Assembly: GCA_024276825.1 (NCBI GenBank)
Contig: JAJRWI010000009.1
Span: 1-64,000, forward strand
Length of the DNA stretch: 64,000 bases
Direction of reading: 5' to 3'
From: an archaeon
Lineage (GTDB): Archaea; Asgardarchaeota; Thorarchaeia; Thorarchaeales; Thorarchaeaceae
The notes beneath the pieces were generated by a model. That model was not told the origin of the DNA. It worked only from the letters and a program-made list of their open reading frames with translations, and searched no databases. Shown piece by piece: positions 19,135-38,314 of the stretch (position 1 is its first letter; the number at the start of each line of letters is the position of its first letter). The position numbers were made by a program, and so were the translations under genes.

Positions 19135-20022
19135 ATGAGAGTAAGAATCGGCGACACAGTGATTCCATATCCTATCAATCGAATTGTGGGCCATCTTCGA
19201 CTGGTGGGACTATCATACAATGATTGCTTCAGATTGACCCAGCCACTATATAATAATGCCCGGATTTTTGAGCTATCCGAACTATTGGAATATTTGAATA
19301 AAGAAATATTCAATATATCGGAAGAAGCGGCGGAGTCGTTTGAATTGATAAACAGGTATCAGGGTCTCAGGAGGTCGAAGAGGGGCGTGCCGCCAATCAT
19401 CATAGTCCTTGAAGGAGCTTCTGCAACGGGCAAGTCATTGCTGAGTATCTCCGTCATATCAAATCTGGGTCTAGCCAGAATAATCAGTACAGACAGCGTC
19501 CGACAGATATTACGATCCGTCATCAGCAAGGATGAGCACCCAGAATTGTTCTGTCATACTTATCAGGCCCACAAGTACAGAATGAGCGGCAACCCCAGAT
19601 TGAGCGAGTCAGTGAGGGGATTTCTCGCACAGGTGGACTTGATGAGGTCTGCATTGGAAAGTGCCGTGCAATTACTCATCAGTGAGGGTGCTGATGGAAT
19701 GATAGAGGGAGTCCATATTGTGCCAGGGTCATTCTCAAGGCTTGAGAAGAGTGTTCTTGAAATCTTGATACATCCCAGTGCTGAGATGCACAAAATGATG
19801 TTCATTTCAAAGAGCAAGGCTGCAGCATTGAAGTCAGTCAGTAATGATGAACAGATCAGAAGAGTCGAGTTCAAAGCGACGCGTGAGATACAGGACTACA
19901 TGTATGAGCAGGCAACGAAGAACGGGGTCCCAATAATCCAACTAGAGGATTATGAGAGTGCAGAGAATGAGCTTAATGCACTCATTCTCCGCAGAGTCCG
20001 AGAACTTGTGAGCGAGTTTTAG
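19135..20022 (+). CDS. 2-phosphoglycerate kinase-like P-loop kinase
   Basis: EGASATGKS Walker A, IISTDSVRQILR, IEGVHIVPG, REIQDY. Confidence 0.75.
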   Translation: MRVRIGDTVIPYPINRIVGHLRLVGLSYNDCFRLTQPLYNNARIFELSELLEYLNKEIFNISEEAAESFELINRYQGLRRSKRGVPPIIIVLEGASATGKSLLSISVISNLGLARIISTDSVRQILRSVISKDEHPELFCHTYQAHKYRMSGNPRLSESVRGFLAQVDLMRSALESAVQLLISEGADGMIEGVHIVPGSFSRLEKSVLEILIHPSAEMHKMMFISKSKAAALKSVSNDEQIRRVEFKATREIQDYMYEQATKNGVPIIQLEDYESAENELNALILRRVRELVSEF

Positions 20023-21524
20023 GGTATTAATGTGAAGGCGCCGTTTATTGCAAGTTCCATGATTATGCTGGGATTAAGAAATAGAATCACAGTCAGGGCA
20101 GCACAGATGATGACCGCCAGTGTTGGAATTCGGGGCAGTGTGATTCTTGACTCATCAGAGGGGTCTTCAAAGTAAGTGACCTTTAGCACTCGTAGGTAAT
20201 AACCCAGAGAGAACACCGAGTTGATAAGTCCAATCAATGCAAGCCACCACATACCAACTTCCACAGCGCTTTGGAATACGTACCACTTGGCCCAGAGACC
20301 CACAGTGAACGGGATTCCAGCCAGAGATATCATGAATATGACTAGCATTCCCGCAGCTAATGGAGACCGTCTGCTCAATCCAGACAGATCTGCATAAGTG
20401 ATTTCTTTTGCAAGTCTGAGTGAGAGAATCCATATGAGAATGAATGCTCCGGCCTTTGTAATGGCATGTGCAAATGCATAGAACAGTGCTGCTGAGGCAC
20501 CAAAGGAATTGGTTGCGGTAGTCGAGGCGATTCCGATGAACAGGTAGCCCATCTGGGCAATGGATGAAAATGCCAACATCTTGGTGATCGTTATCTTTGG
20601 ATCAAGTGCCAGTACATTGCCAATAATCATGGTTGCAACTGATACTATCACAATAAGCATGCTCCACTCAAAGCGTGCAACAAGGAACCCTACAAGGAGG
20701 ATTCGCATGAGGGCACTTATACCAGTCTTCTTGGTAGCGCCGGCCAAATACGAAACGACATTGCCATCGGAATTGCAATATGTGTCAGGGACCCATTGCC
20801 AGCCAGGGAATATACCAACTTTGAAGCCAAAGGCAATCACAAAAAGGATTAAGGCAAGAATCAGGGGGTATGCTGCTTCGCCAATTGGGGTTGTAGACCA
20901 GATTGTGTTGGCTGCGGCAGCGATAACAGGAATTGATGTGGTCCCTATCACACCATAGACTATTGCAATGCCAAAGGCGAGAAGCATGCTAGAGAGCAGA
21001 CCAATAACCAAGTACTTTACAGCACCGTCAATAGACCCTCTGAATGGACCAAGCGCGACAAGCACGTAAGTTGGTGTGGACATCAACTCCCATGCCATGA
21101 AAAGGGCGACGAGATCATTTGCCATTACAACCCACATGGCTCCCGCGAAAGATATCAGAAATAGTGCGTTATAGATCCCTTTTGAGCCGCCATAACTTGT
21201 GGCAGAGAGCAAGACAATGAAGGCAACAAACAGGATGATATAGATGAAGAAGTCTGTGAAGGCATTTCTGATGAACAGACCACCAAATGAATTGGTTGGT
21301 GCGAGAATTATCATCTCGAGCCCTGAGAGAATCACGCCTATGAAACTGATGGGCAGGGGGTTCCAGCGGAGACCCACCATCAGGGCCAATAATGCAAATA
21401 CTATCAAGGTTATTGCCGGAAGCGAACCAATCCAGTCGCTTGGAACATAGGTTGTCATAAGATCTCTTATTGGACTTGCGATGAGTTCGAACAGTTGTAG
21501 TAGTGGGTCAAATATCTGGAACAT
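20019..21524 (-). CDS. nuoN: Complex I-like subunit N
   Basis: WELMSTPTYVLV, AVKY, FKVGIFP-WVPD, LAFSSIAQMGY, SLAGIPFTVG. Confidence 0.88.
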   Translation of the reverse strand: MFQIFDPLLQLFELIASPIRDLMTTYVPSDWIGSLPAITLIVFALLALMVGLRWNPLPISFIGVILSGLEMIILAPTNSFGGLFIRNAFTDFFIYIILFVAFIVLLSATSYGGSKGIYNALFLISFAGAMWVVMANDLVALFMAWELMSTPTYVLVALGPFRGSIDGAVKYLVIGLLSSMLLAFGIAIVYGVIGTTSIPVIAAAANTIWSTTPIGEAAYPLILALILFVIAFGFKVGIFPGWQWVPDTYCNSDGNVVSYLAGATKKTGISALMRILLVGFLVARFEWSMLIVIVSVATMIIGNVLALDPKITITKMLAFSSIAQMGYLFIGIASTTATNSFGASAALFYAFAHAITKAGAFILIWILSLRLAKEITYADLSGLSRRSPLAAGMLVIFMISLAGIPFTVGLWAKWYVFQSAVEVGMWWLALIGLINSVFSLGYYLRVLKVTYFEDPSDESRITLPRIPTLAVIICAALTVILFLNPSIIMELAINGAFTLIP

Positions 21525-23017
21525 TATGGAATCACCCCTAGCATGTTATCAACAGCTGGTGCTATTAGGTTCAATATCAAGTCAGGCCACACACCCAACA
21601 GAATGACGGGAATCATCATCAGAACAGGAGCAATTAGGTCACTCCAACTGGCCTCTTTAACTCCACTCTCAGGATCTGGCTCGCTAAAGACAATCCTGTT
21701 AAGAGTCCATAACAGATAGCCGACAGTTATGAAAATGCCAAATGCTATCAGCCCTGATAATGGATAGATCATTACTGCGCCAAAGATAATGAGCAACTCG
21801 GCAATAAAGCCACTAAAGCCCGGTAGTCCGAAAGCAGCAAATGATGCAAGGATAAGCAGGACCGACATTCTTGGGGCTTGCTTCAGGAGACCCTTGACCT
21901 TGGGGATCTCGCGAGTGCCAGCAGAATATTTCAACTGTCCTGCCATGATGAACATCACAGAGATGATTGTTCCATGGGAGAACATCATGAATACTGCACC
22001 CTGAATTGCCAGACTTGTTCCCACTGCCACTCCAAGTAAGACCCAAGACATGTGATTGATTGAGGTATAGGCGACCATACTCTTGAGATCAGTCTGGGCC
22101 ATTGCGGTGAATGCCGCATAAATGCATGTAAAGATGGCAAGAATTACGAATGGAATGCTGAGTCTTGCAAATGCATCAGGCACAAGCCAGACACCAAGAC
22201 GGATGAAGGCGTATCCGCCCATCTTCAGCAGAATGCCAGCAAGAATTACAGACCCTGGAGTCGGCGCCTTTACATGAGCCCAAGGAAGCCAAGTGTGCAT
22301 CGGAAACACAGGGAGTTTCACTCCAGCGCCCATAAACACCGCAAGAACATAGCCCATCTGCACCATCGATGGAAGACTCATGTCGCGGAGGGCTAACATA
22401 TTGAAGGTATGACCTCCGAAGAAGAAGATCACAAAAAAGCCCACAAGCATGATTGCTGAGCCAAAGTGTGTGAAGATAAAGAACTTGATGGCCGCATGTT
22501 TGCAACCCTCCTCACCCCATTTGCCAATTATGAAGAACATGGGGATTAAGACCAGTTCCCACATAACAAAGAATCCCACAAGGTCGATGGACATGAAGAC
22601 TCCAAGCAGGCCGGTCTGCATGAACATGAATAATGAATAGTAAAGGCTCTGTGACTTGTTGATGTGGTTCGAGCTGATGGCTGCAATGAGAGTGACGATG
22701 TTGGACAATAGAATCATCACAACCGAGATACCATCAACTCCCAATGCGAGTTGCATGTTGGCCCAATCACCAGATACATAGATTCTGCCAAATGTGTAGG
22801 CCCATAGAAATGTCATGTCTGAGGAGGGATCAATACCAAGTGCCAGTAAAACTGCAAGTCCGAGTTCGAACAACGAAATTACCAGTGTGATTGCTCTTGC
22901 TGCCCGAGAACCGGTCAATAGAGATAGGAAAGCACCAATCAATGGCGCAAGCAGCATCAATGGCAGTATTGGTAGTGGCAAGCTCTGAAGTATCTGTAAG
23001 GCAAAGTCCAACTGCAA
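21524..23017 (-). CDS. nuoM: Complex I-like subunit M (canonical copy)
   Basis: DGIS, WELVLIPMF, AAIKFF, KLPVFPMHTWLPWAHVKAPTPGSVILAGILLKMGGY, AYTSINHM, SHG, GFIAE. Confidence 0.9.
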   Translation of the reverse strand: MQLDFALQILQSLPLPILPLMLLAPLIGAFLSLLTGSRAARAITLVISLFELGLAVLLALGIDPSSDMTFLWAYTFGRIYVSGDWANMQLALGVDGISVVMILLSNIVTLIAAISSNHINKSQSLYYSLFMFMQTGLLGVFMSIDLVGFFVMWELVLIPMFFIIGKWGEEGCKHAAIKFFIFTHFGSAIMLVGFFVIFFFGGHTFNMLALRDMSLPSMVQMGYVLAVFMGAGVKLPVFPMHTWLPWAHVKAPTPGSVILAGILLKMGGYAFIRLGVWLVPDAFARLSIPFVILAIFTCIYAAFTAMAQTDLKSMVAYTSINHMSWVLLGVAVGTSLAIQGAVFMMFSHGTIISVMFIMAGQLKYSAGTREIPKVKGLLKQAPRMSVLLILASFAAFGLPGFSGFIAELLIIFGAVMIYPLSGLIAFGIFITVGYLLWTLNRIVFSEPDPESGVKEASWSDLIAPVLMMIPVILLGVWPDLILNLIAPAVDNMLGVIP

Positions 23018-25204
23018 TCACAGCACCCCCATTATGACAAGAAGGATGATTATCATCACTCCAAGTCCAAAGATTATCATTGCAACATAATCGTTGATAC
23101 GTCCCGTCTGCACAGTCATTCCCGTTCTGGATGCCTGCACACTCTGAGTGGCCACACCCTCAGCAAAGCCATCGATGACATGATCATCGAACCATCTAAT
23201 CTTTCTCGACATCGTCTGTGCCAGTCTTGATGAACCAAAGTCAATGCCATCTATTATTCGATTGTCAATCTTTACACGCCACCACTCGACAAACCTCAAG
23301 AACTTGTAAAGTACCCAGTAATAGAACTCGTTGATATACCAGCGATGTTTCAAAAAGCTGTAGACTCTTCTTCGGACTCCTCTTTCGGGAATGAGTGCAT
23401 TGTTCTTACCTTCACCCTTGATGTAAATCATATATGCAGGAATGCCGCCCAGCGCCAATGCAGCCAGAGTGGCTCCAAAGGGTATCAGGCCAGGCATGGT
23501 GATCTTGACTATAATCATTTCCATGAGAATCTCATCCCATGGAGTATCTGCAGCCAAGACAATGTTCTGAATTATCGGGTAAATGAGAAACGCGATTAGT
23601 GTGAATCCAGCAAGAATGTACAGTGGAATCATCATTGCAGGGCCCGGATCATGAGGCGAATTATGCGCCTCTTTATCTTGCATTTCATGATGCTCTTCTT
23701 CATGGCCATAGAACACGATACCCATTAGTCTGATACTATAGAATATTGTGCACATAGCAGCCAAGACTGCAAGTATGAACAAGACCATTCCAAGCTGATT
23801 CAGAAACACACCTGCCTCAGAGGCCACTGCAAGCTCATATGTGTATTCGATGATTGAGTCTTTTGACCAGAACCCTGAGAATGGAGGAATTCCAGCAAGT
23901 GCTGCAACTCCAATCCACATCACCGCCAGGGTTCTTGGCATGTACTTCTTGAGACCACCCATTTTTGTCATGTACTTGGTATGAACCGCATGAATTACTC
24001 CGCCTGCTGCAAGGAATAGGAGAGCCTTGAAGGCACCATGACTGATGACATGAAGAACAGAAGAGAGATAGGCGGCTTCCCCAGCATGGAGGAGATGTTC
24101 ATTGGCCCCAATCAAAAGACCGCCAACGCCAATCGCCAACATCATGTAGCCCAGCTGACTTAGAGTAGAGAATGCCAGAACCTGCTTCATTTCGTTTGAT
24201 GTCATACCCATGGTTGCTGTCATGAATGCAGTAATGGCACCAATGACAGCAATAACGAGGAAGAATGTCTGTGCACTGCCGAGCGAGATTAGAGAGGATT
24301 GAATATGTCCTGCAGCTTCCACAAGAGTGATGAGAAATCTGGCGCTTATGTATACTCCGGCCTTGACCATGGTGGCAGCATGAATTAGGGCAGAAACAGC
24401 AGTTGGACCTGCCATGGCCTCAGGCAGCCAAACCTGCAGTGGTGCCTGTCCGGACTTTCCAATCGCACCCATGAATATCAGCAGGAAGGTCGGTATCAGC
24501 ATTCCAGCCCCAACCATTGCTACAAACCATTCACCACTCTCAGCCATTTCAGTGAACATGAATGTTCCAGTGAAGAGAAATAGGAGAAGTATTCCCCCTA
24601 GCATAAAGGCGTCACCAATTCTTGTGACTATGAATGCCTTTGTGCCACAGTGTGTATTGTATTGACCCTCAGTCTTATAGTTCAGCAATGGATTGCTCTG
24701 AGGATAACCTGTGGGATCTTCTTCAGGAGGATTTCGTTTGTCGTTCCAGAAGCCAATCAGTCCATAGGAACAGAACCCCATTATCTCCCAGCCAATGAAC
24801 CCGATCAATAGGTTGTTGCTCAATACAAGTGTCAGCATTCCGCCTCCGAAGGCAAGCATCAGGAAGAAGAATCGATCTTTGTCCTCTTCATGTGCCATAT
24901 ATTCGGTACTGTAGACATAAATGAGGAAGCAGAGCGTGCTGGCCAGAACAGCCATAATAACCGACAGGGGATCCAATAAGACACCAAACTCAAGATGCAA
25001 TGAGGGAATCCACATCCAAGTTGTCTGTGTCTGAGGATTGTTGATCTCAAGGAGTAGCGACCAGCACAAGATCATAGTGATCCCCATCAGAATTGCGGGA
25101 GTCCAGTCTCTTAATTTCTGACTGAGCCTTCCAATCAGGGGGACGAATAATGAACCAGCAAGGGGAATCACAAGAATGATGTAATAGGGTAATCCGAACA
25201 GCAT
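23018..25204 (-). CDS. nuoL: Complex I-like subunit L with lengthened lateral helix
   Basis: GWEIMGFCSYGLIGFW, GKSGQAPLQVWLPEAMAGPTAVSALIHAATMVKAGVY, STLSQLGYM, GFWSKD, QTG. Confidence 0.92.
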   Translation of the reverse strand: MLFGLPYYIILVIPLAGSLFVPLIGRLSQKLRDWTPAILMGITMILCWSLLLEINNPQTQTTWMWIPSLHLEFGVLLDPLSVIMAVLASTLCFLIYVYSTEYMAHEEDKDRFFFLMLAFGGGMLTLVLSNNLLIGFIGWEIMGFCSYGLIGFWNDKRNPPEEDPTGYPQSNPLLNYKTEGQYNTHCGTKAFIVTRIGDAFMLGGILLLFLFTGTFMFTEMAESGEWFVAMVGAGMLIPTFLLIFMGAIGKSGQAPLQVWLPEAMAGPTAVSALIHAATMVKAGVYISARFLITLVEAAGHIQSSLISLGSAQTFFLVIAVIGAITAFMTATMGMTSNEMKQVLAFSTLSQLGYMMLAIGVGGLLIGANEHLLHAGEAAYLSSVLHVISHGAFKALLFLAAGGVIHAVHTKYMTKMGGLKKYMPRTLAVMWIGVAALAGIPPFSGFWSKDSIIEYTYELAVASEAGVFLNQLGMVLFILAVLAAMCTIFYSIRLMGIVFYGHEEEHHEMQDKEAHNSPHDPGPAMMIPLYILAGFTLIAFLIYPIIQNIVLAADTPWDEILMEMIIVKITMPGLIPFGATLAALALGGIPAYMIYIKGEGKNNALIPERGVRRRVYSFLKHRWYINEFYYWVLYKFLRFVEWWRVKIDNRIIDGIDFGSSRLAQTMSRKIRWFDDHVIDGFAEGVATQSVQASRTGMTVQTGRINDYVAMIIFGLGVMIIILLVIMGVL

Positions 25205-25214
25205 CTGTCACACC

Positions 25215-26744
25215 TCACGGAGTCGGAATGATATTAATCAGGTGACTGACTGCAGGCATAATCACATCCACAGCAAGCCCTGGGAATATTCCAAATAGCA
25301 CAATCAGCACGCCCAGTAGTATCTGGGGAATGATCATTGAGCGTGGACCCTCTTTGACATCTTCCAGCTCATCAGGATGAGGCCCGAGAAAGACCTTCCA
25401 GAGAAACCGCAGCATGTAGCCAGCACTAATGATTGAGCTCGAAACAGCAAAGATTGTCAGTATCAGAAAATTGAATGATCCAGTAGCATAATAGACTTGG
25501 AAGCCACCCAGAAACATCAACCATTCACTAGCAAAGCCTGAGAGGGGTGGGCTGCCTGCAATGCTCATGGCTCCGACTGCAGCCATAAATGCGGTGATTG
25601 GCATCTTATTGGAGAGACCGCCCATCTTATTGATATCTCTCAGACCTGTCTGATGGATAACTGTTCCAGCAGTCATGAACAACAGACCTTTTGAGAAGGC
25701 ATGATTAATCAGATGAAACATGCCTCCAGTCACGCCAAATGTGGAAAATGTGCCAAGGGCAAAGAGCACATAGCCCATTTGCGAAACTGATGAGTAAGCG
25801 AGCAGTCTCTTGATGTCCACTTGAACCAGTGCCATGAAGCCACCATAGAACATTGTGATGACGCCAATAGAACTGATGAAGAAAGCGAGGTCTCTGGCTG
25901 CTGAAAAGAGCATGATGTTTCCGAAGCGCATTAGAGCATAGGCACCGGTTTCAATCATTGCACCTGACAAGAGAACAGATATTGGAGTTGGAGCTTCAGC
26001 GTGAACGGGAGGTAGCCACCAATGGATTGGGAATACCGCCATCTTGACGAGAAACCCTGCAGCGAGTAAGATGAATATCACCTTGAGCATTCCAGAAGCA
26101 ATCAGTTCGCCAACAGCAGGCCCTCCAGCTATCAGAAATGCCTGAATGTCATTCAATACAAACATTCCTGTCACCATGTAGGTCAGTCCAAGGCCAACGA
26201 TTATGCAGACAGCTCCAGCCTGTGTGTAAAGCCAGAACTTCAGAGCTGTCCGCTGACGAGTTTCGGGTAGGCCCCAGAATAGTATCAGGAAATAGCTTGG
26301 GACCAACATCAGCTCCCAGGCGATGAAGAACTCTACGATGTTAGTTGCAAGAGTGACCCATTGCATGCCCATTAGAAAGAACAGTTGATTTGCAAAGAAG
26401 GTCGACCTGTTCTCCATATGTTTCGTATAGCCGATAGCATAGACAACTGACAGGAATCCAAGGAATACTACAGCGAAAGTAATGGGAAATGCGACACCAT
26501 CAAGAAACAGGCCAAATGAGCCCAAAACCGATGACCACTCGATAGACTCAAGGGCCACACCATTCTCGACCATCACACGATAGAACGGCGGTATCATGAG
26601 CAGCAAAGCAACAAAGGAGATTGCCGAGGCAACTTTTCCCGCATAGTTTTCAAATCGATCACCGTTCAGATATATCAACAGGCCGCCAAAGAACAGCACC
26701 ACGAGGGATGCTGTCATGAATGGAAATTCTACTATCTGCATCAT
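25215..26744 (-). CDS. nuoM: Additional NuoM-like antiporter subunit
   Basis: WELMLVPSY, ALKF, KMAVFPIHWWLPPVHAEAPTPISVLLSG, LAYSSVSQMGY, NHAFSK, GFASE. Confidence 0.8.
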   Translation of the reverse strand: MMQIVEFPFMTASLVVLFFGGLLIYLNGDRFENYAGKVASAISFVALLLMIPPFYRVMVENGVALESIEWSSVLGSFGLFLDGVAFPITFAVVFLGFLSVVYAIGYTKHMENRSTFFANQLFFLMGMQWVTLATNIVEFFIAWELMLVPSYFLILFWGLPETRQRTALKFWLYTQAGAVCIIVGLGLTYMVTGMFVLNDIQAFLIAGGPAVGELIASGMLKVIFILLAAGFLVKMAVFPIHWWLPPVHAEAPTPISVLLSGAMIETGAYALMRFGNIMLFSAARDLAFFISSIGVITMFYGGFMALVQVDIKRLLAYSSVSQMGYVLFALGTFSTFGVTGGMFHLINHAFSKGLLFMTAGTVIHQTGLRDINKMGGLSNKMPITAFMAAVGAMSIAGSPPLSGFASEWLMFLGGFQVYYATGSFNFLILTIFAVSSSIISAGYMLRFLWKVFLGPHPDELEDVKEGPRSMIIPQILLGVLIVLFGIFPGLAVDVIMPAVSHLINIIPTP

Positions 26745-27172
26745 CTGAATCTACTCCCTCGCCATTCTAGAGGATCCCTGTCTAGGGTTTCTATTCTTTC
26801 TGGATCGTAATGCAATCGCTCGCGTTCTGGCTCGCTCAGATCAACCACTTTAGTATGGAACAAGGCATTAAACCGACATGCTTGAACACAGAGGCCACAG
26901 AATATGCATCGAGTATAGTCAAAATACAAGGCTGCATCCTTCTCATATTTGCGGTCAGACTTGTCAATTCTGATGGCCACGACAGGGCAGGCCCGCACAC
27001 ATTGTGCGCATGCAGTACATTTCTCTCTAATGTGTATATGTCGGCCTCGTGTACGTTCAGGATGCTCCCGGTCCTCGTAGGGATAGAGCACCGTAAATGG
27101 TCGCTCAAAGACCTGACTGAACACATGTTTTAAGATTGTGAATATTTCTCCGAGAGTTGAAAAGAACCCCAT
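26741..27172 (-). CDS. nuoI: Complex I-like subunit I, 2x[4Fe-4S]
   Basis: TVLYPYE, RGRH, CTACAQCVRACP, CIFCGLCVQAC. Confidence 0.92.
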   Translation of the reverse strand: MGFFSTLGEIFTILKHVFSQVFERPFTVLYPYEDREHPERTRGRHIHIREKCTACAQCVRACPVVAIRIDKSDRKYEKDAALYFDYTRCIFCGLCVQACRFNALFHTKVVDLSEPERERLHYDPERIETLDRDPLEWRGSRFR

Positions 27173-27176
27173 TTGC

Positions 27177-28316
27177 TTAACCTCCCATTACAAGGGCCGC
27201 AAGGCCATCAATGTATGCCAGTCCAAATAGCACAAGAATGATGTTCAGCATTGATAGTGGCAGCAAATATTTCCAGCAGTATCTTGTGATCTGGTCCTGC
27301 CTTAGTCTGTAAAATGAAGATGTCACTATAATGAAGAAGAACATCACAATCAAGAATTTGATTATAAAGTTGACAAATCCCGGTAGAAACGGAAGTCCTG
27401 AAGCTCCTCCAAAGAAAAGTACAACCATGAGTGCGCTATAGAGCATCTGTTCAGCAAACTCTGCAAAGTAGGTCAGAGTGAAATAGACACCAGAGAGTTC
27501 AGTTCTCCAGCCAAAAATAATCTCGGAGTCTGCAACAGGTGCATCAAACGGGAAGGTCCCAACAGCGACCACAGAGCTGACAAGGAAGGTAACAAAATTG
27601 ATCGGTAGCAGAAACACATACCACACCGAACTCTGAGCTCCTGAAATCGCCATTAGACTCAGAGACCCAGCAAGCAGGGCAGGACCAACTGAAGACATTA
27701 TGATGGGGATTTCTGCTGCAAACTGATTGTTTGCTGCTCGGAAACCACCTATCAATGAGTATTTAGAGCCGCTAATCCATCCAATCAGTAATGCCAGAAT
27801 TGGTACTGCGGCTAGAAATGCAAACACTAGTACTAGGCTAACGCTAAGGTCAGCGATATACCAAGTTGCGTCCCAAGGTATGAAAGCGAAGGGCAGAAGG
27901 ACTATGACTAACAGGATTGATGGTAAGATGCGATACATCCAACGTCTTGAACCATCAGGAATGATGACCTCTTTGGAAATAAGCTTGATGGCATCAGCAA
28001 AGAGCTGCAGTCCACCAAATTTGCCCATATGAAACGGACCCCGTCGCATCTGGATTCGACCCCACATTTTTCGGGTGAACCAGACTGTATAGATCAGGGC
28101 AAGGACTACGAATATGAGTCCTGGAAATAAGATTGCCTTAATCAGAAAGTCGAGATTCAGGAAGACTAAATCCCAAATCCAGAATATAACACCCCAGACC
28201 CAGTTGTAGACCCAAAGGATGATTCCAACAATCCAGTTAACGACATCATAAACCCAGAAGATTAGCCCATAGACCCAATCAATCAGAATTTGAAACCAGT
28301 TGACTTGCATCATCAC
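27177..28316 (-). CDS. nuoH: Complex I-like subunit H
   Basis: RKMWGRIQMRRGP, QLFADAIKLISKE, SKYSLIGGFR, PFD, RLRQDQ, WK. Confidence 0.92.
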   Translation of the reverse strand: MMMQVNWFQILIDWVYGLIFWVYDVVNWIVGIILWVYNWVWGVIFWIWDLVFLNLDFLIKAILFPGLIFVVLALIYTVWFTRKMWGRIQMRRGPFHMGKFGGLQLFADAIKLISKEVIIPDGSRRWMYRILPSILLVIVLLPFAFIPWDATWYIADLSVSLVLVFAFLAAVPILALLIGWISGSKYSLIGGFRAANNQFAAEIPIIMSSVGPALLAGSLSLMAISGAQSSVWYVFLLPINFVTFLVSSVVAVGTFPFDAPVADSEIIFGWRTELSGVYFTLTYFAEFAEQMLYSALMVVLFFGGASGLPFLPGFVNFIIKFLIVMFFFIIVTSSFYRLRQDQITRYCWKYLLPLSMLNIILVLFGLAYIDGLAALVMGG

Positions 28317-28326
28317 TCTTATCCTC

Positions 28327-29463
28327 CTATCTGTCCCAAAGCCCGGGATATGGATCTAGACTTCCAAATATCACAATAAAGTCTGCAAAGCGCGATCCTG
28401 GCACTAGATGCTTTAAGGCATAGTATGAGGCAAAGCACGGGCCTCGAATCTTCGCCCTATAGGCGGTCTGTGCCTTTTCGGTCGTCTTCAACCAGAGGGA
28501 GGTTATTCCTCGTGTCCCTTCAACTCTGCCATATGCCTCGCCTTCAGGTAGTCTGTTTGCCTTTGCTCTTGCCTTTGGATCAATTATTGGACCTTCTGGA
28601 ATCTGAGGCAATAGCTGTCGTATTATGTTGATTGAGGTCTCAACCTCCAAAAACCGCTGAACCATTCTGTCGTAAGCATCGCTCTGGCCGGGATGCTCCT
28701 CATTGTGAACCGTGGGCACTTCCCAGTCTGCAAGATCATAGGCGAGGTTGGAGTCGGGCTTGTCCTTTCGCAGGTCCATTGGCACCCCACACGCCTTGAT
28801 GTTCGGTCCTGAGAGACCCCAACGTAGGCCCTGTTCTGCACTGAAGAGACCTACATTCTTTGTACGAAGACGAAATGTCGGGCCATGTAATAGCATATCT
28901 TTGAACTTCGGCAATCGTTCCTCGATCCGCAATAGTGCACGATCAAGTTTCTTGAGAAATTTGTCAGTAAAGTCGTATTTCACGCCGCCAGGAGTATTGA
29001 ATGAAACTGCATGACGAGAGCCTGTGAGTTCCTCAAAGGCATCTAGGAAGTATTCACGATCCACCCATGGCCATAATAGCATCGTGAATAGACCAAGTTC
29101 TGCTGCAAACTGCCCCCACCAGAACTGAAGACTATGGATTCGACTGGCCTCCATGAGAATTGTACGCATGATACGGGCACGTTCGGGAACCTCAAGTCCA
29201 GCAATCTGCTCAACCGCTGAAACATATGGATATTCCATAAGAAATGATTCAAGCATGCACAACCGCTCCATCACTAGGGGGCCCTGCCTGAAATTCCTAA
29301 ACTCCAGCACTTTTTCAGCAGAACGATGGAAGTAGCCAGCATGCGGGTCACATTCCACAATGTAATCACCAATGAGTGTCAGCTTAGCGGCCCAGCCATG
29401 TGCTGAAACATGTTGGGGGCCAAACCAGATCTCGATTGCTTCATCAAGAATGTCAGGACTCAT
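28327..29463 (-). CDS. nuoD: Complex I-like subunit D (no NiFe CxxC motifs)
   Basis: FGPQHVSAHG, GYFHRSAEK, VPERA, PGGV, SGP, C-terminal SLDPYPGLWDR. Confidence 0.9.
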   Translation of the reverse strand: MSPDILDEAIEIWFGPQHVSAHGWAAKLTLIGDYIVECDPHAGYFHRSAEKVLEFRNFRQGPLVMERLCMLESFLMEYPYVSAVEQIAGLEVPERARIMRTILMEASRIHSLQFWWGQFAAELGLFTMLLWPWVDREYFLDAFEELTGSRHAVSFNTPGGVKYDFTDKFLKKLDRALLRIEERLPKFKDMLLHGPTFRLRTKNVGLFSAEQGLRWGLSGPNIKACGVPMDLRKDKPDSNLAYDLADWEVPTVHNEEHPGQSDAYDRMVQRFLEVETSINIIRQLLPQIPEGPIIDPKARAKANRLPEGEAYGRVEGTRGITSLWLKTTEKAQTAYRAKIRGPCFASYYALKHLVPGSRFADFIVIFGSLDPYPGLWDR

Positions 29464-29975
29464 TATTCATTCGCCTCCTTTGGTGGGCGTGGCTTGGGCT
29501 GCGGAAGTCCAGACTCTGCCAATCGACTGCGGTCAGTCATAAAGCTCTTTCTCATGGGATATCTTCCTACAAGTTCATCAGGAAGCAATAGAGGTCTGAG
29601 ATCGGGATGTCCCTTGAACTTGATACCGAACATCTCATGGGTCTCGCGCTCATGCCATTCAAGTCCAGCAATAATATCACTCACAGTATCAATCTCTGGG
29701 GGCTCGCCCTCAAGTAGAACCCGCACTTGAACCAGCAGTCTTTTGTTTCGCGACCAGAAGATGTAGATCATCTCATACTGATTGTTCCTTAGATCCACAC
29801 CGAAGCACGATTCAGGAAACAGATCATTGATGTACTCGTCTAAGAATCTGATTACATCACGTATCTTCTCCGGAGCTGCTTTGATGTCCAGTCTGTCAAT
29901 TGATGGCACTACTTCAATATCAGGCATCTTGTTGACCAGTTCCCGAGCCAGAGTCATTGCCTCACCATCACTCAT
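29463..29975 (-). CDS. nuoC: Complex I-like subunit C
   Basis: WHERETHEMFGIKFKGHPDLRPLLLP...PMRK; ATG 29975 overlaps the nuoK end. Confidence 0.9.
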   Translation of the reverse strand: MSDGEAMTLARELVNKMPDIEVVPSIDRLDIKAAPEKIRDVIRFLDEYINDLFPESCFGVDLRNNQYEMIYIFWSRNKRLLVQVRVLLEGEPPEIDTVSDIIAGLEWHERETHEMFGIKFKGHPDLRPLLLPDELVGRYPMRKSFMTDRSRLAESGLPQPKPRPPKEANE

Positions 29976-30288
29976 CAGAAATCTCCTCCTGAACAACTGG
30001 GACACCGAGGTCAATGGTCTGATATCTACGATGATACATGAGCATTAGTACCATGGCCAGAGCTGTATGAGCTGCAGCTACTGAAATAATCAGAATGACA
30101 AGACCTTGGCCAGTGAATGTAAAAGTGTCCAGATATAATGAGAATGCAACTAGAGCGATCATTACACCATTTCCCATGATTTCTGCGCTAATGATTATTC
30201 GAATGAGGTTTCTCTTCACCATCATTCCATATGCTCCAAGCCCAATGAGCATGAAAGCAAGTGCAAGATACCATGATAATGGAATCAT
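29968..30288 (-). CDS. nuoK: Complex I-like subunit K
   Basis: RNLIRIIISAEIM, GQ, VAAA; three TMs. Confidence 0.9.
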   Translation of the reverse strand: MIPLSWYLALAFMLIGLGAYGMMVKRNLIRIIISAEIMGNGVMIALVAFSLYLDTFTFTGQGLVILIISVAAAHTALAMVLMLMYHRRYQTIDLGVPVVQEEISDE

Positions 30289-30290
30289 CC

Positions 30291-30959
30291 TTATGTCCCC
30301 TCCTCTTCAGCATCCTGTGCCATTATGACAGGAACGGTGTCTTCTGATTTGTTTCCCGCCTTTGCTTTTTCAGAAGTGTCATCATCCCAGGTCGCTAAGC
30401 CATATACACCACTCTCAGGGTTCAAATGCTCAGCCTTCTCAAGCTTAAGGATTGCAAGTGAACCAATTAATGATGTGAGAATAATTATCGCGATAAACTG
30501 AACATATATTCCATGGTTACCCCAAAGCCATTGCGCAAGCCCTTCAAGGCTCTGAGCCAAGTCAACATTAACTGCAGGGATCTCAGTGGGCCAAGTGAAT
30601 AAAAAGACCAGACTCCCGCTCAAGATTATTACAAATATTGAAAGAACAATTCCTAATCGCTTCTTTCTGATTGTCTCAAAGCGCTCGCGCGTTGTGTCAT
30701 GAAAGATGGGAAGTAGTAATACTCCAAAGATTATCAGCACACTGATGCCTCCAGTGTAGACAGCAATCTGCATACCTGCAACAAAGGGGGCTTCAAGCAA
30801 TAGGAAAAAGCCTGCTACAAAGGAGGCCATTATTCCAAAGAAGAACACTGCATAGACCAAGTCTTTGTGTTCAAGAGCCAGTATTGCAAGAACAAGCACA
30901 ATTCCTGCAATTAGAAGGAATTCAATATGTTCGAGTAGTGCTTCAATCTGCATAAGCAT
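30291..30959 (-). CDS. nuoJ: Complex I-like subunit J
   Basis: LEAPFVAGMQIAVYTGGISVLIIFGVLL. Confidence 0.88.
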   Translation of the reverse strand: MLMQIEALLEHIEFLLIAGIVLVLAILALEHKDLVYAVFFFGIMASFVAGFFLLLEAPFVAGMQIAVYTGGISVLIIFGVLLLPIFHDTTRERFETIRKKRLGIVLSIFVIILSGSLVFLFTWPTEIPAVNVDLAQSLEGLAQWLWGNHGIYVQFIAIIILTSLIGSLAILKLEKAEHLNPESGVYGLATWDDDTSEKAKAGNKSEDTVPVIMAQDAEEEGT

Positions 30960-31393
30960 TAATGGTGAACCTCCTTTGTTTCATGCTTGGTTTTTGCCTC
31001 CCGATACAGCTTGAGGGTCTCCTCGCCAGACAGGAAGGTTTGCGGCAGAATCTTTACAGCAAACATGATTCCTGCCATTATGAACAGAGCAAAGAAAAGG
31101 ACCTGCCAGACAACCATCTTATCAAGTCGTAGTGCAGATACTGAGAACAACCAAAGAAAGGCGCCCATTACATCTACAACTAGAAACAAGATGGAATAGA
31201 CTATGTAATTATAGGGATATGAGACTCTTGCTGGACCAATTGGCTCTTCACCGCATTCATAGGTCGAGGTCTTCTCAGAGTTCTGCAACACATGGGGACG
31301 TAGCACCCATGAAGCAAGCAGCATAACAATAACCAGAACAACTGCAAGTATTGCCCATACCAGCACGGGGATGAAGTCCAGGAACAATCTCAT
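30959..31393 (-). CDS. nuoA: Complex I-like subunit A
   Basis: EKTSTYECGEEP, ILFLVVDV; GGTGA SD upstream. Confidence 0.9.
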   Translation of the reverse strand: MRLFLDFIPVLVWAILAVVLVIVMLLASWVLRPHVLQNSEKTSTYECGEEPIGPARVSYPYNYIVYSILFLVVDVMGAFLWLFSVSALRLDKMVVWQVLFFALFIMAGIMFAVKILPQTFLSGEETLKLYREAKTKHETKEVHH

Positions 31394-31407
31394 GCTATCA
31401 CCGTCCC

Positions 31408-31433
31408 CATGTTGATGTTATCAAATCAACATG
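31408..31433. promoter_or_regulatory. Perfect 9-bp inverted repeat upstream of nuoA (operator or leader hairpin)
   Basis: catgttgat-gttatcaa-atcaacatg between the SD and a TTTTTATC TATA-like element (about 31463-31470, minus strand). Confidence 0.5.
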
Positions 31434-31556
31434 TGAAGTAGGATTCTAGCCACAATTTCCATGATAAAAAGACTTCGCAAGCAAGGAGAAGATGTTATAT
31501 ATAGCTCATTTACGAATTCTGACATGTGTTGAAAGGAACAGAATGGTGAAAGATTC

Positions 31557-31922
31557 ATGGTCATGATCAAAATCACATGGACTTCATTGTATTATGTAGG
31601 GTTCATACTAGGACTATTCTTGGTCGCCACAAATCTCTGGGTCATTATCGACACAATTCCTGTTAATTATACGGTTCATTTCATTCTATTCATGAGCGGA
31701 ATTGGAATGGTAATCTCAACATTGCTTATTGTCAATTCAAGCAGCCGGTCGGGAAGATTATTATTGACGATTGCATCGGGGTCCTTGGCAGGAGTTCATG
31801 GATTTCTTGATGTGGTCTACTTTCCAACCCTTCCAGGATATTTCATGTTCATGTGGCTGGCTTTCGGAACATTGTTGACCCTCTCCTGCTACGATTGGCT
31901 GGCCAGAAAGCCATCTGCATAG
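31557..31922 (+). CDS. Hypothetical 4-TM membrane protein
   Basis: Four hydrophobic segments; TTATATAT box at about 31496. Confidence 0.65.
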   Translation: MVMIKITWTSLYYVGFILGLFLVATNLWVIIDTIPVNYTVHFILFMSGIGMVISTLLIVNSSSRSGRLLLTIASGSLAGVHGFLDVVYFPTLPGYFMFMWLAFGTLLTLSCYDWLARKPSA

Positions 31923-31926
31923 TTGT

Positions 31927-32451
31927 TCATGATGTGCTTTCTTCTGATTGGTCTCCTGCAGAAGGCACTGTTTCAGTTTTGGGTTTCTTTTCAGGTTCAG
32001 GCTCTGGCTCAGGCGCAGGCTTAGGGCCATAATGGAGAGCACTCACATCCATTATCCCAAGAGTCGTGGCCTGATCATAGCTGTGTCTCATGGAGAAACC
32101 CAAAGCAACAACAATTGCACTCCCAATACCCCAAGTTGTGAGAAACACCCCTCCAACAGGGTAGGAGATCACAAGGTATAATGCAGAGAGAAAGATTGCC
32201 AATGCGAGCATGTTGATCCTCAACTTCTTCCTCTTTGGTCTGAAATAGCCAATGAATAAAAACACAAGAAGCACAGGGATTATTATCAGTGATAGAAATC
32301 TCCCGCCGAGAGATGCGATGAAGTCAGCCTGCAAGAACTGGTTATAGAAGAAATTGAAGTAATATGCTGCAAAGAAGAGTATTCCAACCCACAATGTGCA
32401 GTATGGATCAGCATCCTCACGAAGTCTTGGTGTTCTTGACTCAGAACTCAT
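31927..32451 (-). CDS. Hypothetical 4-TM membrane protein with PE-rich tail, coupled to the FAD-NuoB fusion
   Basis: ATGA overlap with the upstream stop at 32448-32451; hydrophobic segments; PKPAPEPEPEPE. Confidence 0.65.
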   Translation of the reverse strand: MSSESRTPRLREDADPYCTLWVGILFFAAYYFNFFYNQFLQADFIASLGGRFLSLIIIPVLLVFLFIGYFRPKRKKLRINMLALAIFLSALYLVISYPVGGVFLTTWGIGSAIVVALGFSMRHSYDQATTLGIMDVSALHYGPKPAPEPEPEPEKKPKTETVPSAGDQSEESTS

Positions 32452-34388
32452 TTGATCAACCCCATTGCATCTTGGCTCTCGTGTTTGAGTTGCCAATGAG
32501 TAGTGCCTGCTCGAATCTTATTCTCTAGAATGATATGAGCACGAACAAAGTCAGATGGCTTGGGCGGGCAGCCAGGCAGATAGACATCAACAGGAACAAT
32601 TGACTCTGGAGAAGTGACCAAGGAATAGCCATCCCAGAAAAGGCCCCCACTTGCAGCACATTGACCGAAAGAGATGACGAACTTTGGTTCGGGCATCTGT
32701 TCATAGATGCGCCTGAGTCGTGGAGCCATCTTCTTAGTGAGTGATCCTGAGATCCACAAAACATCACATTGACGTGGACCAAAGAGAGGCAGCATTCCGA
32801 ACCGCTCAATGTCCCATCGTGATGCAACTGCTGCAGCACCATCGACCATGCAGCAGCCAAGTCCATATTGTACAGGCCAAGGACTGTGAGCTCTGCCCCA
32901 ACGAAGTATCCATTTAACAGGAGGCAAGTTCTGAAGCCATTTTAAGAATATTGGCGCGATCCTACCAAAGCCGTTTCTGAATAGGTCGAATCCCAACCAC
33001 ATGAAATACTTGCCAACCCGTAATATGAAAGGTAACCAGAAGGCAAAGATCTTGCCTGGATTTGATATCTCCTTTGGGTCATACTTTAGCTTTGCAGCGC
33101 GAATCTTTCCAAGGCGTCGCTTGCCAAAGTACTGCGGAGCATAGTTTGCGAACCAGATGCCTGTGGAATGTGGATGTCCACCATGACGCTGTGCAATCTT
33201 GAATATCACAAAGCTCTGAGACCAGCTTAGCATGAAAAAGTGTCTGCGTTCATCCTCGAGAAAATAGCCCATCATTGTCACGCCATTCTTAGAGGTCACA
33301 TAGCCATCGATCCCTGCTCTTGCAGATGCCTGCTCAAACTGAAAGTCATCAAGAATTGCCTCTAAGTTTTCTAGTGGGGCAAATGCTTGGCCGACCACTA
33401 ATGTTGGACCAGCCTTTTTGATCTTCATTGGATAGAAACGTTCATGCCACTCATGTTCAGCAACTTGATCATCATAAACAGTACCTTTGAGTTCTGCTGT
33501 GACCCTCTTCACTACTTCGATACCTTCCTCGATCTCTTCTTCAGGGCCATCATATGCCACCAGCATTACACAGTGATGTACTGGAAATGGAAATCGCTCT
33601 TTCTTATCCCATATTCGTTTCTTTAAGTCAACATATTTGCTCTCTTCGAACTTGATTGTATGTGGAAGAGGCCCCTCCTCAATTATCTTCTCTATTGCGA
33701 ACACCATTAGATAGTTCTCTGGAAAGCTTGCGACAATGGCCTTTATCTTTGTAAGTGGCTTTACTTTGAGTTTGATCTTAGTGATAATGCCAAGAATGCC
33801 CTCAGTGTCGCAGAACAGTTCGCGATCCTTGCTCTTCACAATTCTACCTGTTGGAATGACCACTTCAAACTCAAGCACATTTTCGTTGATATTCCCGTAC
33901 TTTAGGGAGCCGATGCCATCACCGCCTTGAGCAACCCAACCGCCAATAGTGGCAGCAAGTCCTGACGATGGGTAAGCACGCAGATCAAGTCCTTGCCTGT
34001 TCAACTCAAACTGAAGGTTTGCCCAGGAAATTCCTGGTTCTACAACAACAGTCAGGTTCTCTTTGTCAATCTCTATTATTGAGTCCATTCTACGCATGTC
34101 AACAATTATTCCACCTTTGCGTGGGATGGCACCGCCATATCCCGAGGTGCCTGCCCCGCGGGGGACAATTGGAATCTCTTCTTGATTGGCGAATTCATAG
34201 AGAGCCTTAATCTCTTCGGGTGTAGTGGGCTGAACAATGGCATCAGGTTTGTTGTTCATCAACCAGCCTACTTGTTTTGGCAGAGAACCGACATCCATCG
34301 AGTCGATGATGAGCTCATGTTTTTCAAGAATAACACGATCACCAAAGAGTTCTTTGAGCCTATCGACATGATGTTTTTTCAGTTTCAA
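32448..34388 (-). CDS. Fusion: GlcD/D-lactate dehydrogenase-family FAD oxidoreductase + NuoB
   Basis: N-terminal PRGAGTSGYGGA, VEPG, TIGGW, TEGILGIITK, DPKEISNPGK; C-terminal GLGCC, DIERFG, PRQCD, MPEPKFVISFGQCAASGG, PVDVYLPGCPP. TTG 34388 follows GGAG. Confidence 0.9.
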   Translation of the reverse strand: MKLKKHHVDRLKELFGDRVILEKHELIIDSMDVGSLPKQVGWLMNNKPDAIVQPTTPEEIKALYEFANQEEIPIVPRGAGTSGYGGAIPRKGGIIVDMRRMDSIIEIDKENLTVVVEPGISWANLQFELNRQGLDLRAYPSSGLAATIGGWVAQGGDGIGSLKYGNINENVLEFEVVIPTGRIVKSKDRELFCDTEGILGIITKIKLKVKPLTKIKAIVASFPENYLMVFAIEKIIEEGPLPHTIKFEESKYVDLKKRIWDKKERFPFPVHHCVMLVAYDGPEEEIEEGIEVVKRVTAELKGTVYDDQVAEHEWHERFYPMKIKKAGPTLVVGQAFAPLENLEAILDDFQFEQASARAGIDGYVTSKNGVTMMGYFLEDERRHFFMLSWSQSFVIFKIAQRHGGHPHSTGIWFANYAPQYFGKRRLGKIRAAKLKYDPKEISNPGKIFAFWLPFILRVGKYFMWLGFDLFRNGFGRIAPIFLKWLQNLPPVKWILRWGRAHSPWPVQYGLGCCMVDGAAAVASRWDIERFGMLPLFGPRQCDVLWISGSLTKKMAPRLRRIYEQMPEPKFVISFGQCAASGGLFWDGYSLVTSPESIVPVDVYLPGCPPKPSDFVRAHIILENKIRAGTTHWQLKHESQDAMGLIK

Positions 34389-34749
34389 TTGGCTTTCTCC
34401 TTTCAGTTCTGAGTGGTTGCCATCAATCTTAATGGAATAAAAAATGTTCCCATTCACAATTCAAGAGTAAATAATGGAGAATTATTGAACATTTTTTCAG
34501 ATCTATTCGTTGATTTGCATACATGGTCCAATGAAATAAGCATACTTCAAGCATCTGATTTGTTTCCTGATAAGAAGTCTTGATTAAGATCGCACCTGCC
34601 AAGAAGGAACAAAATAGTTCAGTGATTACAAAATGGCAATCAATTATTAATTATCTTTGACAGTGATTTGAATATCCTTATTTGGGAAAAGTATTAGTGG
34701 GAGGAAAAACGCCAAAGAGCCTAACTGGAAATTCATTGAGGTATCGATT

Positions 34750-35976
34750 ATGCGATTCTCAACTCTGAACAAGTTTGGTCTTCAAGACATTCCATTCACT
34801 TGCGCTCAATGCAGCTTTTGTCAGGTAGGCAATGGCGCATGTCCTACCTACAAGGTCAAACGAAGAAACAGCTATTCAGGCAAGGGAAAGATGGTTCTCA
34901 CTAGATCCTTGATGCAGGGCCGATTAAGTAAGAATGATGGTCTTGAAGGTCTACGCGATGCAATATTTGGCTGCACGCTTTGCGGCGGTTGCGAGGAGAT
35001 TTGCCAAGTGGACATTCCATTTGTTCAGATCTATCAACTCATGCGTGCAGAGTTTTTGAAGCGCGGCATGTGGCCAGAACAACTTGTGCCAATGCGTGAA
35101 ACCCTTGTTAAGGAGAGAAACATTCAAGGACAATGGAATGGCGACAGAGTTGAGGGTTGGTCATATTGGCATCCTGATGAGGATGAGTTATTAGAACATG
35201 TGGGCCGCAAAGCCAAGACTGCTTTCTATGTGGGCTGCACATCCTCGTTTAGGGGCATTCCAATTCAGGCCACCATAGCCACTACTCTTATTATGGAAAA
35301 GACAGGTGAGGATTACACCCTGCTTGGTGAGGAAGAGTGGTGTTGTGGGGCCCCATTAATCATGACTGGAGATTTCGACACAGCAAGGCAATTTGCAGAG
35401 CATAATATCGCAGCATATCAGGAGTTGGGTGTTGAGAAGATTGTGACCAACTGTCCAGGATGCTACAAGATGTGGGCACATGAATATCATGAGTTTCTTG
35501 AAATAGATGTTCCATTTGAGGTCCAATATGGTGCCCAGTATCTTGCTGAGCTCGTTGATGATAACAGGCTCACTGGACTCTCCAATCCACTAGATGTGTC
35601 AATCACTTTTCATGACGGATGTGATGCTGGCAGGAATTGTGGAATTTATGAAGAGCCTCGTAAGGTGCTCGAATATCTCCCAGGCGTTGAATTTGAAGAG
35701 CTTCCTCATAATAAGAACCGTTGCTATTGTTGTGGCTCTGGGGGTGTGCTTCGTCCAGTCGATGCAGACTTTGCAATCCAGATTAACAGACTCAAGGTCA
35801 AGGACATTGAACAGACAAATGCGGATTTGGTGATTTCTGCGTGCCCGTCATGTGTTGATTTCATGTATGACCAGTTGCCGCAAGCAAGCTCAAATCGAAT
35901 CAGCAAGGATCTTGCAGTCATAGTGGCTCAGGCACTTGGTCTCACATGGGATGGTCTAGAAGAAACTTATGGTTAG
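34750..35976 (+). CDS. HdrD/GlcF/GlpC-like Fe-S oxidoreductase (2x[4Fe-4S] + two CCG domains)
   Basis: CAQCSFC..CP, CTLCGGCEEIC, VGC..WCCG..CPGC, HDGC..CCG..CPSC. Confidence 0.9.
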   Translation: MRFSTLNKFGLQDIPFTCAQCSFCQVGNGACPTYKVKRRNSYSGKGKMVLTRSLMQGRLSKNDGLEGLRDAIFGCTLCGGCEEICQVDIPFVQIYQLMRAEFLKRGMWPEQLVPMRETLVKERNIQGQWNGDRVEGWSYWHPDEDELLEHVGRKAKTAFYVGCTSSFRGIPIQATIATTLIMEKTGEDYTLLGEEEWCCGAPLIMTGDFDTARQFAEHNIAAYQELGVEKIVTNCPGCYKMWAHEYHEFLEIDVPFEVQYGAQYLAELVDDNRLTGLSNPLDVSITFHDGCDAGRNCGIYEEPRKVLEYLPGVEFEELPHNKNRCYCCGSGGVLRPVDADFAIQINRLKVKDIEQTNADLVISACPSCVDFMYDQLPQASSNRISKDLAVIVAQALGLTWDGLEETYG

Positions 35977-37037
35977 ACTGGAACTCTTATTGATGCGATG
36001 TTTCGATATACAATGTATGTAATCACAATGACTATCAGAAGGTAGACTGCAAACAATTCAATGGATATTTCAAGACTAGTACAAATGTATGCACCAGACA
36101 TAATGAGTCCTGTGAATAGGTGAACCTGAATTGTTCCAACATAACTGGGAATCAATGCGACTGAATTTGAAAAGTTCTTCATCGTGTTACGGGTTGCAAG
36201 TATTGCTATAGGCAGAGTTACCAATGCAGATAGCGCATAGAACGGAATTAGAAACAGAACAACCAAGGCAAGTAATGATACATATACACCCATCATCAAT
36301 ACAGCGTATCCCTTTGCAGCTTTCTCGAGTCCAAGACGCACAACCAGAGTTTTCTTTCCAGCAGCTTTATCAGCATTATAATCTGGAAACTCGTTTATGT
36401 AAAGTATCGCAGTGATGAGAAGTGAAACTGGAATTGATGCTGAAATTGGCCACAGATCAATAGTCTGCGCTTGGACATAGTATGATCCCAAAGTCATCAA
36501 AATGCCAAAGTTCAATCCAATGAATATCTCACCGATACCACGGGAAACCAATTTGAATGGGGGTGCAGTATAGAAAAAGCCAGAGAGGGCCCCGATAATT
36601 CCAAGATATAAAATGGTAATGCCTCTCATCAATGTAAGGTAAAGGCCGATAATTCCACCACATGCGAAAAATACCAGAGACCCCGCTAATACCTCACGTG
36701 GTGATAGCCAGCCACGTTGAATCATTCTGGCGCCACCGCTGAATGGACTGATGAATTCTACATTAATATCATCTGTCCCACTCTTGTGATCAAAGTAGTC
36801 ATTTGAAACATTGGCACCAAAATGGAGAAACATTCCTGCTGTTAATGTCAATAGAAAGTAGTCAATCAAAAATACTCCAGAAACTGCCCATGCAACTGTG
36901 GTTCCAAGAATAATTGGTACAATAGTAGCTGTGAGAAATGGAAGTCGAAGCTCCATTAACCAAATTCGACCTTTTCCAAGTCGGTCTTGACTTGTTGTCC
37001 TATCGTTCATTATCATAAGGTGGCTTATCTTGACCAA
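35973..37037 (-). CDS. menA: 1,4-dihydroxy-2-naphthoate polyprenyltransferase
   Basis: LRLPFL, NVSNDYFDHKSGTD, YTAPP, RGIGE, INEFPDYNADKAAGKKTLVVRLG. Confidence 0.88.
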   Translation of the reverse strand: MVKISHLMIMNDRTTSQDRLGKGRIWLMELRLPFLTATIVPIILGTTVAWAVSGVFLIDYFLLTLTAGMFLHFGANVSNDYFDHKSGTDDINVEFISPFSGGARMIQRGWLSPREVLAGSLVFFACGGIIGLYLTLMRGITILYLGIIGALSGFFYTAPPFKLVSRGIGEIFIGLNFGILMTLGSYYVQAQTIDLWPISASIPVSLLITAILYINEFPDYNADKAAGKKTLVVRLGLEKAAKGYAVLMMGVYVSLLALVVLFLIPFYALSALVTLPIAILATRNTMKNFSNSVALIPSYVGTIQVHLFTGLIMSGAYICTSLEISIELFAVYLLIVIVITYIVYRNIASIRVPV

Positions 37038-38302: not shown

Positions 38303-38314
38303 ATGACTTCATTG

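Follow-up and report, generated by a model that had tools for sequence, protein, structure and literature searches.

A complex I-like operon with four antiporter-like genes and a lengthened NuoL lateral helix in an Asgard archaeon

The window analysed here, 64,000 nucleotides of contig JAJRWI010000009.1 (contig C80) from a Thorarchaeaceae assembly (GCA_024276825.1; 2.9 Mb, 98% complete), carries a complex I-like operon on the minus strand at 20019–31393, with the gene order nuoA-J-K-C-D-H-I-M1-L-M2-N. Four of its genes encode antiporter-like subunits, and the lateral helix of its NuoL is 26–30 residues longer than that of the second NuoL of the same genome and of E. coli NuoL. The sequences indicate that the operon probably encodes a redox-driven ion pump that resembles complex I, is without the NADH module and has four antiporter-like subunits in its membrane arm, the extra helix module strapping the additional subunit, M1. 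As judged from its genes, the locus is a further example of the known 2M design and not a new type of machine.

The operon and the NuoL lateral helix

The core subunits A, B, C, D, H, I, J, K, L, M and N are encoded together, as identified by Pfam and BLAST. The genes, all on the minus strand, are as follows.

32448–34457, minus: FAD-oxidase-like domain fused to NuoB; the C-terminal NuoB part is 38–52% identical to stand-alone NuoB of other Asgard clusters
31927–32496, minus: 189-residue membrane protein between the NuoB fusion and nuoA, found in the same place in 14 Thor loci (37–44% identity)
30959–31393, minus: NuoA (PF00507, E 2e-18)
30291–30959, minus: NuoJ (PF00499, E 9e-22)
29968–30288, minus: NuoK (39% against E. 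coli NuoK; matches NuoK of other Asgard clusters)
29463–30014, minus: NuoC (PF00329, E 7e-29)
28327–29463, minus: NuoD without the NiFe cysteine ligands (PF00346, E 6e-61)
27177–28316, minus: NuoH (PF00146, E 9e-85)
26741–27172, minus: NuoI with two [4Fe-4S] clusters (PF00037 and PF12838)
25215–26744, minus: M1, fourth antiporter-like subunit, Asgard M type (PF00361, E 5e-70)
23018–25204, minus: NuoL, 728 residues, lateral helix of three modules (PF00361 and PF00662)
21524–23017, minus: M2, classical NuoM (PF00361; TIGR01972, 437 bits)
20019–21524, minus: NuoN (PF00361; NuoN models of NCBIfam, 275–279 bits)

The operon is densely packed. Neighbouring genes are separated by 10 nt or less or overlap shortly, the largest overlap being the 47 nt between nuoK and nuoC. 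The M1 gene overlaps nuoI by 4 nt, and 10 nt separate its end from nuoL. The initial annotation had read the four pump genes as M-L-M-N, and Pfam bears this out, placing PF00361 in four open reading frames (ORFs) of the one operon. The complete gene order is kept in all Thor loci of sufficient length, and the order M1-L-M2-N occurs in three further Asgard families (loci L056, L068 and L071). NuoE, NuoF and NuoG are not among the ORFs of 20019–34457; the search for them did not extend to the remaining genome.

NuoL is assigned by NF005141 (487 bits) and TIGR01974 (456 bits, cut-off 407.5). Its orthologues, at 58–76% identity, carry Thorarchaeota or Promethearchaeota record titles. The tail of the protein bears a motif twice, IDNRIIDG at residues 646–653 (nt 23246–23269) and FDDHVIDG at residues 672–679 (nt 23168–23191). 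The offset is 26 residues, as the initial annotation had noted. Both IDG motifs and their spacing are kept without insertion or deletion in 22 Thorarchaeota orthologues. When the two 26-residue modules are compared, 7 of 26 residues are identical and the BLOSUM62 sum is 12, against -23.6 ± 10.1 for shuffled modules (z 3.5, p 6.5e-4). On average over 23 orthologues, self-similarity is highest at an offset of 26. Only the comparison at this fixed offset is significant; the self-similarity of the whole region, tested against the best of all offsets in shuffled sequences, is not (p 0.2).

Two conserved positions served as anchors for measuring helix length, Y623 in the RWY motif and G701 in the TG motif ahead of transmembrane helix 16 (TM16), and the residues between them were counted. 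The count is 78 for the window NuoL, 52 for the second NuoL of the genome (contig C14) and 49 for E. coli NuoL, and the net insertion that had been predicted from the motif pair is thus present. The parts of the helix are listed below, by alignment and self-similarity for the modules and by AlphaFold2 (AF2) for the helices.

23117–23377, minus: lateral helix HL, residues 610–696 (AF2 helices 610–619, 621–676 and 678–696)
23183–23260, minus: HL module 2, residues 649–674, the extra module; the first IDG motif straddles its start
23105–23182, minus: HL module 3, residues 675–700; the second IDG motif straddles its start
23033–23098, minus: TM16, C-terminal anchor helix of NuoL, residues 703–724

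Module 1 resembles the first module of the two-module helices of other Asgard NuoL, and modules 2 and 3 are of the duplicated IDG type.

The AF2 model of NuoL has a mean predicted local distance difference test score (pLDDT) of 88.9 and a predicted template modelling score (pTM) of 0.87. In it the helix runs up to residue 696 and is followed by TM16. VIA-align superposes the model on solved NuoL chains with Z of about 46 and a root-mean-square deviation (rmsd) of 2.0–2.7 Å. The aligned range ends at model residues 645–679, which is the helix end of the solved chains; residue 583 of the T. thermophilus NuoL chain, for instance, is aligned to model residue 674. Since the superposition ends where the solved chains end their helix, the helix of the model extends about 25 residues further before the anchor. 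Foldseek alignments over the full length give an rmsd of about 15 Å, against about 4 Å for targets without the helix and TM16, a contrast that would fit a displaced anchor.

Separately, NuoL has a loop of about 20–35 residues (YKTEGxYN...CG) between transmembrane helices at residues about 154–188 (window 24640–24745). It is predicted as coil, is partly common to the C14 NuoL and is missing in E. coli.

Identity and ancestry of M1

The two M subunits differ in their closest relatives. M2 scores 437 bits with TIGR01972, and its top matches in the PDB are all NuoM, ND4 or NdhD. M1 scores 297 bits with the same model (cut-off 263.8), 293 with an MbsH'-type model and 273 with an MrpA model, and its top PDB matches are MrpA, MbsH' and MbhH and only then NuoM. 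By profile alone, the type of M1 is ambiguous.

The trees place M1 and M2 in one M superclade (support 98–99). Within it, M2 forms a clade with E. coli NuoM (support 100). M1 falls together with the M subunits of three-pump complexes from Asgard archaea, to which it is 40–44% identical. M1 and M2 share only 27% identity. NuoN falls in one clade with E. coli NuoN and has Lys in TM12.

A recent tandem duplication of nuoM as the source of M1 was considered and rejected. Constraining M1 and M2 to group together costs 226 log-likelihood units and gives p 4e-11 in the approximately unbiased (AU) test, the constrained grouping having been chosen after a first tree had been inspected. The initial annotation had called the additional gene an extra NuoM. 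This holds in so far as M1 is NuoM-like, lying in the M superclade and above the TIGR01972 cut-off, but it is not a copy of M2. M1 is, by its sequence relationships, a deep paralogue that belongs to the Asgard three-pump M type, with an ancestry distinct from that of M2. The classical NuoM clade takes in both M genes of each of the bacterial-like clusters L137 and L087.

Key residues were scored at E. coli NuoM positions 144, 234, 265, 322, 348 and 407. M2 has E-K-K-H-H-E, identical to E. coli NuoM, and NuoN (E-K-K-M-H-K) and NuoL (E-K-K-Q-H-K) are standard. M1 has E-K-E-Q-H-E in 19 of 19 orthologues. In all four subunits the Glu of TM5, the Lys of TM7 and a charged TM12 residue are preserved, as would be expected of active pumps. 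The deviating residue of M1 (25215–26744) is a Glu, in MIETGAY, at the site of E. coli NuoM K265; the other pump subunits of the window have Lys in TM8. Besides the 19 Thor M1 proteins, M1-type subunits from several further Asgard complexes have the TM8 Glu.

The NuoB fusion is conserved among the Thor loci and was seen in the Thor family only. Stand-alone NuoB genes in other Asgard clusters encode 143–190 residues, and such genes are present in the M1-L-M2-N clusters L068 and L071. Because these clusters share the four-pump order and have stand-alone NuoB, the four-pump arm would be older than the fusion.

Helix length, pump number and alternative readings

How far helix length follows pump number was examined in 136 NuoL representatives, the nearest found in a search of 1.8 billion proteins, in 20 loci retrieved within the Asgard phylum and in a metagenome sample of 80 loci. 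The lateral helices of the 136 fall into classes of 25–26, 49–54, 77–83 and 103–106 residues with a few sequences between classes, and the 78 form makes up about half of them. The helix is thus quantised in 26-residue steps, at about 25, 52, 78 and 104–106. In each lineage the inserted modules are similar to those next to them, suggesting that tandem duplication of helix modules took place several times independently. An FDxxVIDG-type duplication is plain in other lineages also, for example in L066 and L079.

The Asgard loci give the following pairs of helix length and pump genes.

Helix 25: one cluster with L-N only; two pump genes
Helix 51–53: 13 K-L-M-N clusters; three pump genes (12 complete; L069 is ended by the contig end and shows two)
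Helix 78: L056, L068 and the Thor family, order M1-L-M2-N; four pump genes
Helix 80: G298 and G299; four PF00361 genes in the genome, two adjacent and two elsewhere
Helix 106: G101; four pump genes in the cluster and one orphan in the genome

The last of these is the M1-L-M2-N cluster at L071:8576 onward (G101:C25), whose NuoL has four helix modules. The orphan PF00361 gene of that genome, G101:C2:124626–125576, is a possible fifth pump.

The fourth gene and the 26-residue lengthening are therefore paired in Thorarchaeota, and three more families of Asgard archaea share the pairing, as a 2M-type cassette would have it. In the metagenome sample, 26 complete three-gene clusters have a helix of 52–54 residues, one L-M-M-N cluster (L137) has 79 and one incomplete L-M-N-M cluster has 105. 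Every four-pump cluster seen, in six lineages, has a long helix and none has a helix of the 52 class, the related genomes compared here being non-independent samples.

Several observations weigh against a strap that holds M1. Three complete clusters, L079:9986–11899, L098:10010–11938 and L110:9797–11725, carry the FDxxVIDG duplication (78 residues) and only L-M-N, so that a long helix is not proof of a fourth pump gene in the cluster. The match between long helix and extra M that had been proposed thus stands for all four-pump clusters and fails in the other direction, for these three. The pLDDT of the NuoL model is only 45–58 over residues 660–700. Lastly, the TM8 Glu may give M1 a different transport chemistry. 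A strict rule, by which each cluster would have one pump gene more than its NuoL has helix modules, was rejected, since L079, L098 and L110 break it.

Among other readings of the locus, the best surviving one is that the long helix was inherited within a large NuoL lineage and is unrelated to M1, which would then lie distal to L, as MrpD lies beside MrpA, or outside the complex. The wide occurrence of the 78 form, the three clusters with L-M-N only and the MrpA, MbsH' and MbhH structures among the best solved relatives of M1 are in its favor. Against these stand the Asgard clusters, in which the 52 form occurs in 13 of 13 three-pump clusters and a form of 78 or more in every four-pump cluster, and the position of M1 between nuoI and nuoL, which is fixed across families. 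We consider this reading unlikely.

M1 and M2 might also alternate in a single M position, so that only three pumps would work at once and the extra module would be spare or would bind a partner that is not a pump. Both proteins have the NuoM-type Glu in TM12 and belong to the one superclade, and spare helix modules apparently exist elsewhere, namely in the three L-M-N clusters. However, M1 and M2 belong to the same operon and show no hint of being regulated separately, their identity is low (27%), their native neighbours differ, and both genes have been retained since before the split of the Asgard families. Alternation is therefore still less probable. That the helix, being amphipathic, shows the motif pair by chance, with an artefact behind the gap in the alignment, can practically be discounted: the non-significant offset test and the few identities speak for it, but gap placement has no effect on the count between the anchors, helix lengths are quantised, the similarity at the fixed offset is well above that of shuffled modules and the same duplication is evident in L066 and L079.

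The proposed arm, related systems and neighbouring genes

With M1 placed in the membrane arm, the operon would encode a redox-driven, complex I-like ion pump with four antiporter-like subunits rather than three. The strap helix of NuoL would be built of 26-residue docking modules, each of about 39 Å at 1.5 Å per helical residue. In solved complex I structures, one antiporter-like subunit is roughly as wide as one such module. A tandem duplication of the IDG-containing module would have added one module, and the longer helix would pass three neighbours before the TM16 anchor re-enters the membrane, with M1 lying beneath the extra module. From the quinone-site end outward, the subunits are most likely arranged as N, M2, M1 and L, an arrangement that retains two native contacts, N-M2 as in classical complex I and M1-L as in the Asgard three-pump complexes.

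Such an arm would move about five ions, rather than four, for every two electrons. Textbook potentials put the span needed for five ions at roughly 400 mV or more. A span of about 400 mV would suit electron transfer from ferredoxin to a menaquinone-like carrier, and would not suit NADH or a 2-hydroxyacid as forward donor. We therefore lean toward forward pumping, from a low-potential donor such as reduced ferredoxin to a membrane carrier. Ion-driven reverse electron flow, which the initial annotation had suggested, would be suited equally by a higher ion ratio; we regard it as less likely. A joint reading can also be drawn up, in which the arm is an independent hybrid. The M of a hydrogenase-related Asgard three-pump complex (M1, with its TM8 Glu) would have been spliced into a classical L-M-N arm and strapped by the duplicated module. 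It would have a new input head of FAD-oxidase::NuoB with an HdrD-like partner and a locally made prenylated carrier, a MenA-like gene being nearby. The machine would run in reverse: in this anaerobic archaeon, a relative of the eukaryotic host lineage, five ions per cycle would lift electrons from a mid-potential donor to the level of ferredoxin. That all of these parts should hold together appears rather improbable.

The 2M complex I was reportedly described by Chadwick, Hemp, Fischer and Orphan in 2018 (ISME J 12:2668), as the papers that cite it have it. Three features of the class can be read from sequence, and the window has each: all the core genes, a fourth gene for a pump and a helix insertion of about 26 residues. 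In 2M enzymes, a 26-residue insertion in the NuoL lateral helix occurs together with a second NuoM, and the hypothesis is that one more ion is moved per cycle (PMC9040806, PMC6606698), the same consequence as that proposed for the window. The insertion is also present in Manganitrophaceae cassettes without an extra pump gene (PMC9040806). Archaeal 2M enzymes without NuoEFG occur in ammonia oxidisers and Angelarchaeales (bioRxiv 10.1101/2021.05.03.442362), and the window operon lacks NuoEFG as do the Nitrospira and ammonia-oxidising archaeal forms. It differs from the known 2M enzymes in that its extra subunit is a deep paralogue and no duplicate of NuoM, and in that its NuoB is fused and its host is an anaerobic Asgard archaeon. 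What sets it apart from them is the separate ancestry of the extra subunit, the TM8 Glu and the fused input head.

The Chloroflexi-type 2M cassette has the order nuoL-M1-M2-N (PMC7117926). This cassette and L137 share the four pump genes and the three-module helix with the window. In L137, however, the M genes are adjacent and both are classical NuoM, whereas the window has M1 ahead of L, and this M1 is of a different M lineage. Complex_I_3 of Ca. Manganitrophaceae and the rhizobial 'green' complex I likewise fit extra pumps by a 26-residue lateral-helix insertion (PMC9040806). In those enzymes two MrpD-like subunits replace NuoL and the pumps number five; the window has a single NuoL and four pumps, and so falls outside the 'green' class. 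The Asgard three-pump K-L-M-N clusters have the same NuoL family and an M1-type M subunit, but their helix has two modules, their N is MrpD-like and they have no classical NuoM.

Other classes are set apart by gene content. A canonical 14-subunit NADH:quinone oxidoreductase has NuoE, NuoF and NuoG, of which the operon has none. NuoD has no pair of CxxC motifs as would be expected of a Group 4 membrane-bound [NiFe] hydrogenase (Mbh/Hyf); its single Cys is in RLCM, and its C-terminal DPYPGLWDR contains no Cys. An Mrp cation/proton antiporter, with an MrpB-like extension on MrpA and with MrpC, E, F and G, would have no redox module and so not the NuoB, C, D, H and I of the operon, and the long subunit of the window ends in a lateral helix and TM16, like NuoL.

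No description of a four-pump complex I in Asgard archaea was found, and a literature search for Thorarchaeota with NuoM gave none. The passages searched in an Asgard survey that cites the 2018 2M paper mention no four-pump arm. The four-pump design is now placed in Asgard archaea. Helix-module number and pump-gene number agree here and the extra pump can be traced to an origin of its own, which makes the locus a good test object for the 26-residue module as a docking unit for one pump. It is also a good one for asking what enzymes with three pump genes and a long helix hold under the spare module. The design bears, moreover, on the energy that these anaerobes conserve from ferredoxin.

Beyond the NuoB fusion, the following genes adjoin the operon.

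34750–35976: HdrD-like CCG gene
35973–37037, minus: MenA-family UbiA prenyltransferase (TIGR00751, 121 bits; cut-off 102)
37235–38302, plus: polyprenyl synthase
38315–39544, minus: geranylgeranyl-reductase-like flavoprotein

The three prenyl-type genes (35973–39544) stand next to the operon and its HdrD-like neighbour, and their assignments suggest that they may serve the synthesis of a prenylated membrane electron carrier. MqnA/D and MqnC of the futalosine pathway were not found in the genome (98% complete); of the classical men pathway, only MenA was searched for.

The same genome holds a second, three-pump complex I-like set. Its K-L-M-N genes are at G000:C14:53187–58706 (L024:9187–14706), near an aldehyde:ferredoxin oxidoreductase gene, and its NuoD and NuoH genes are at G000:C24:126653–128541.

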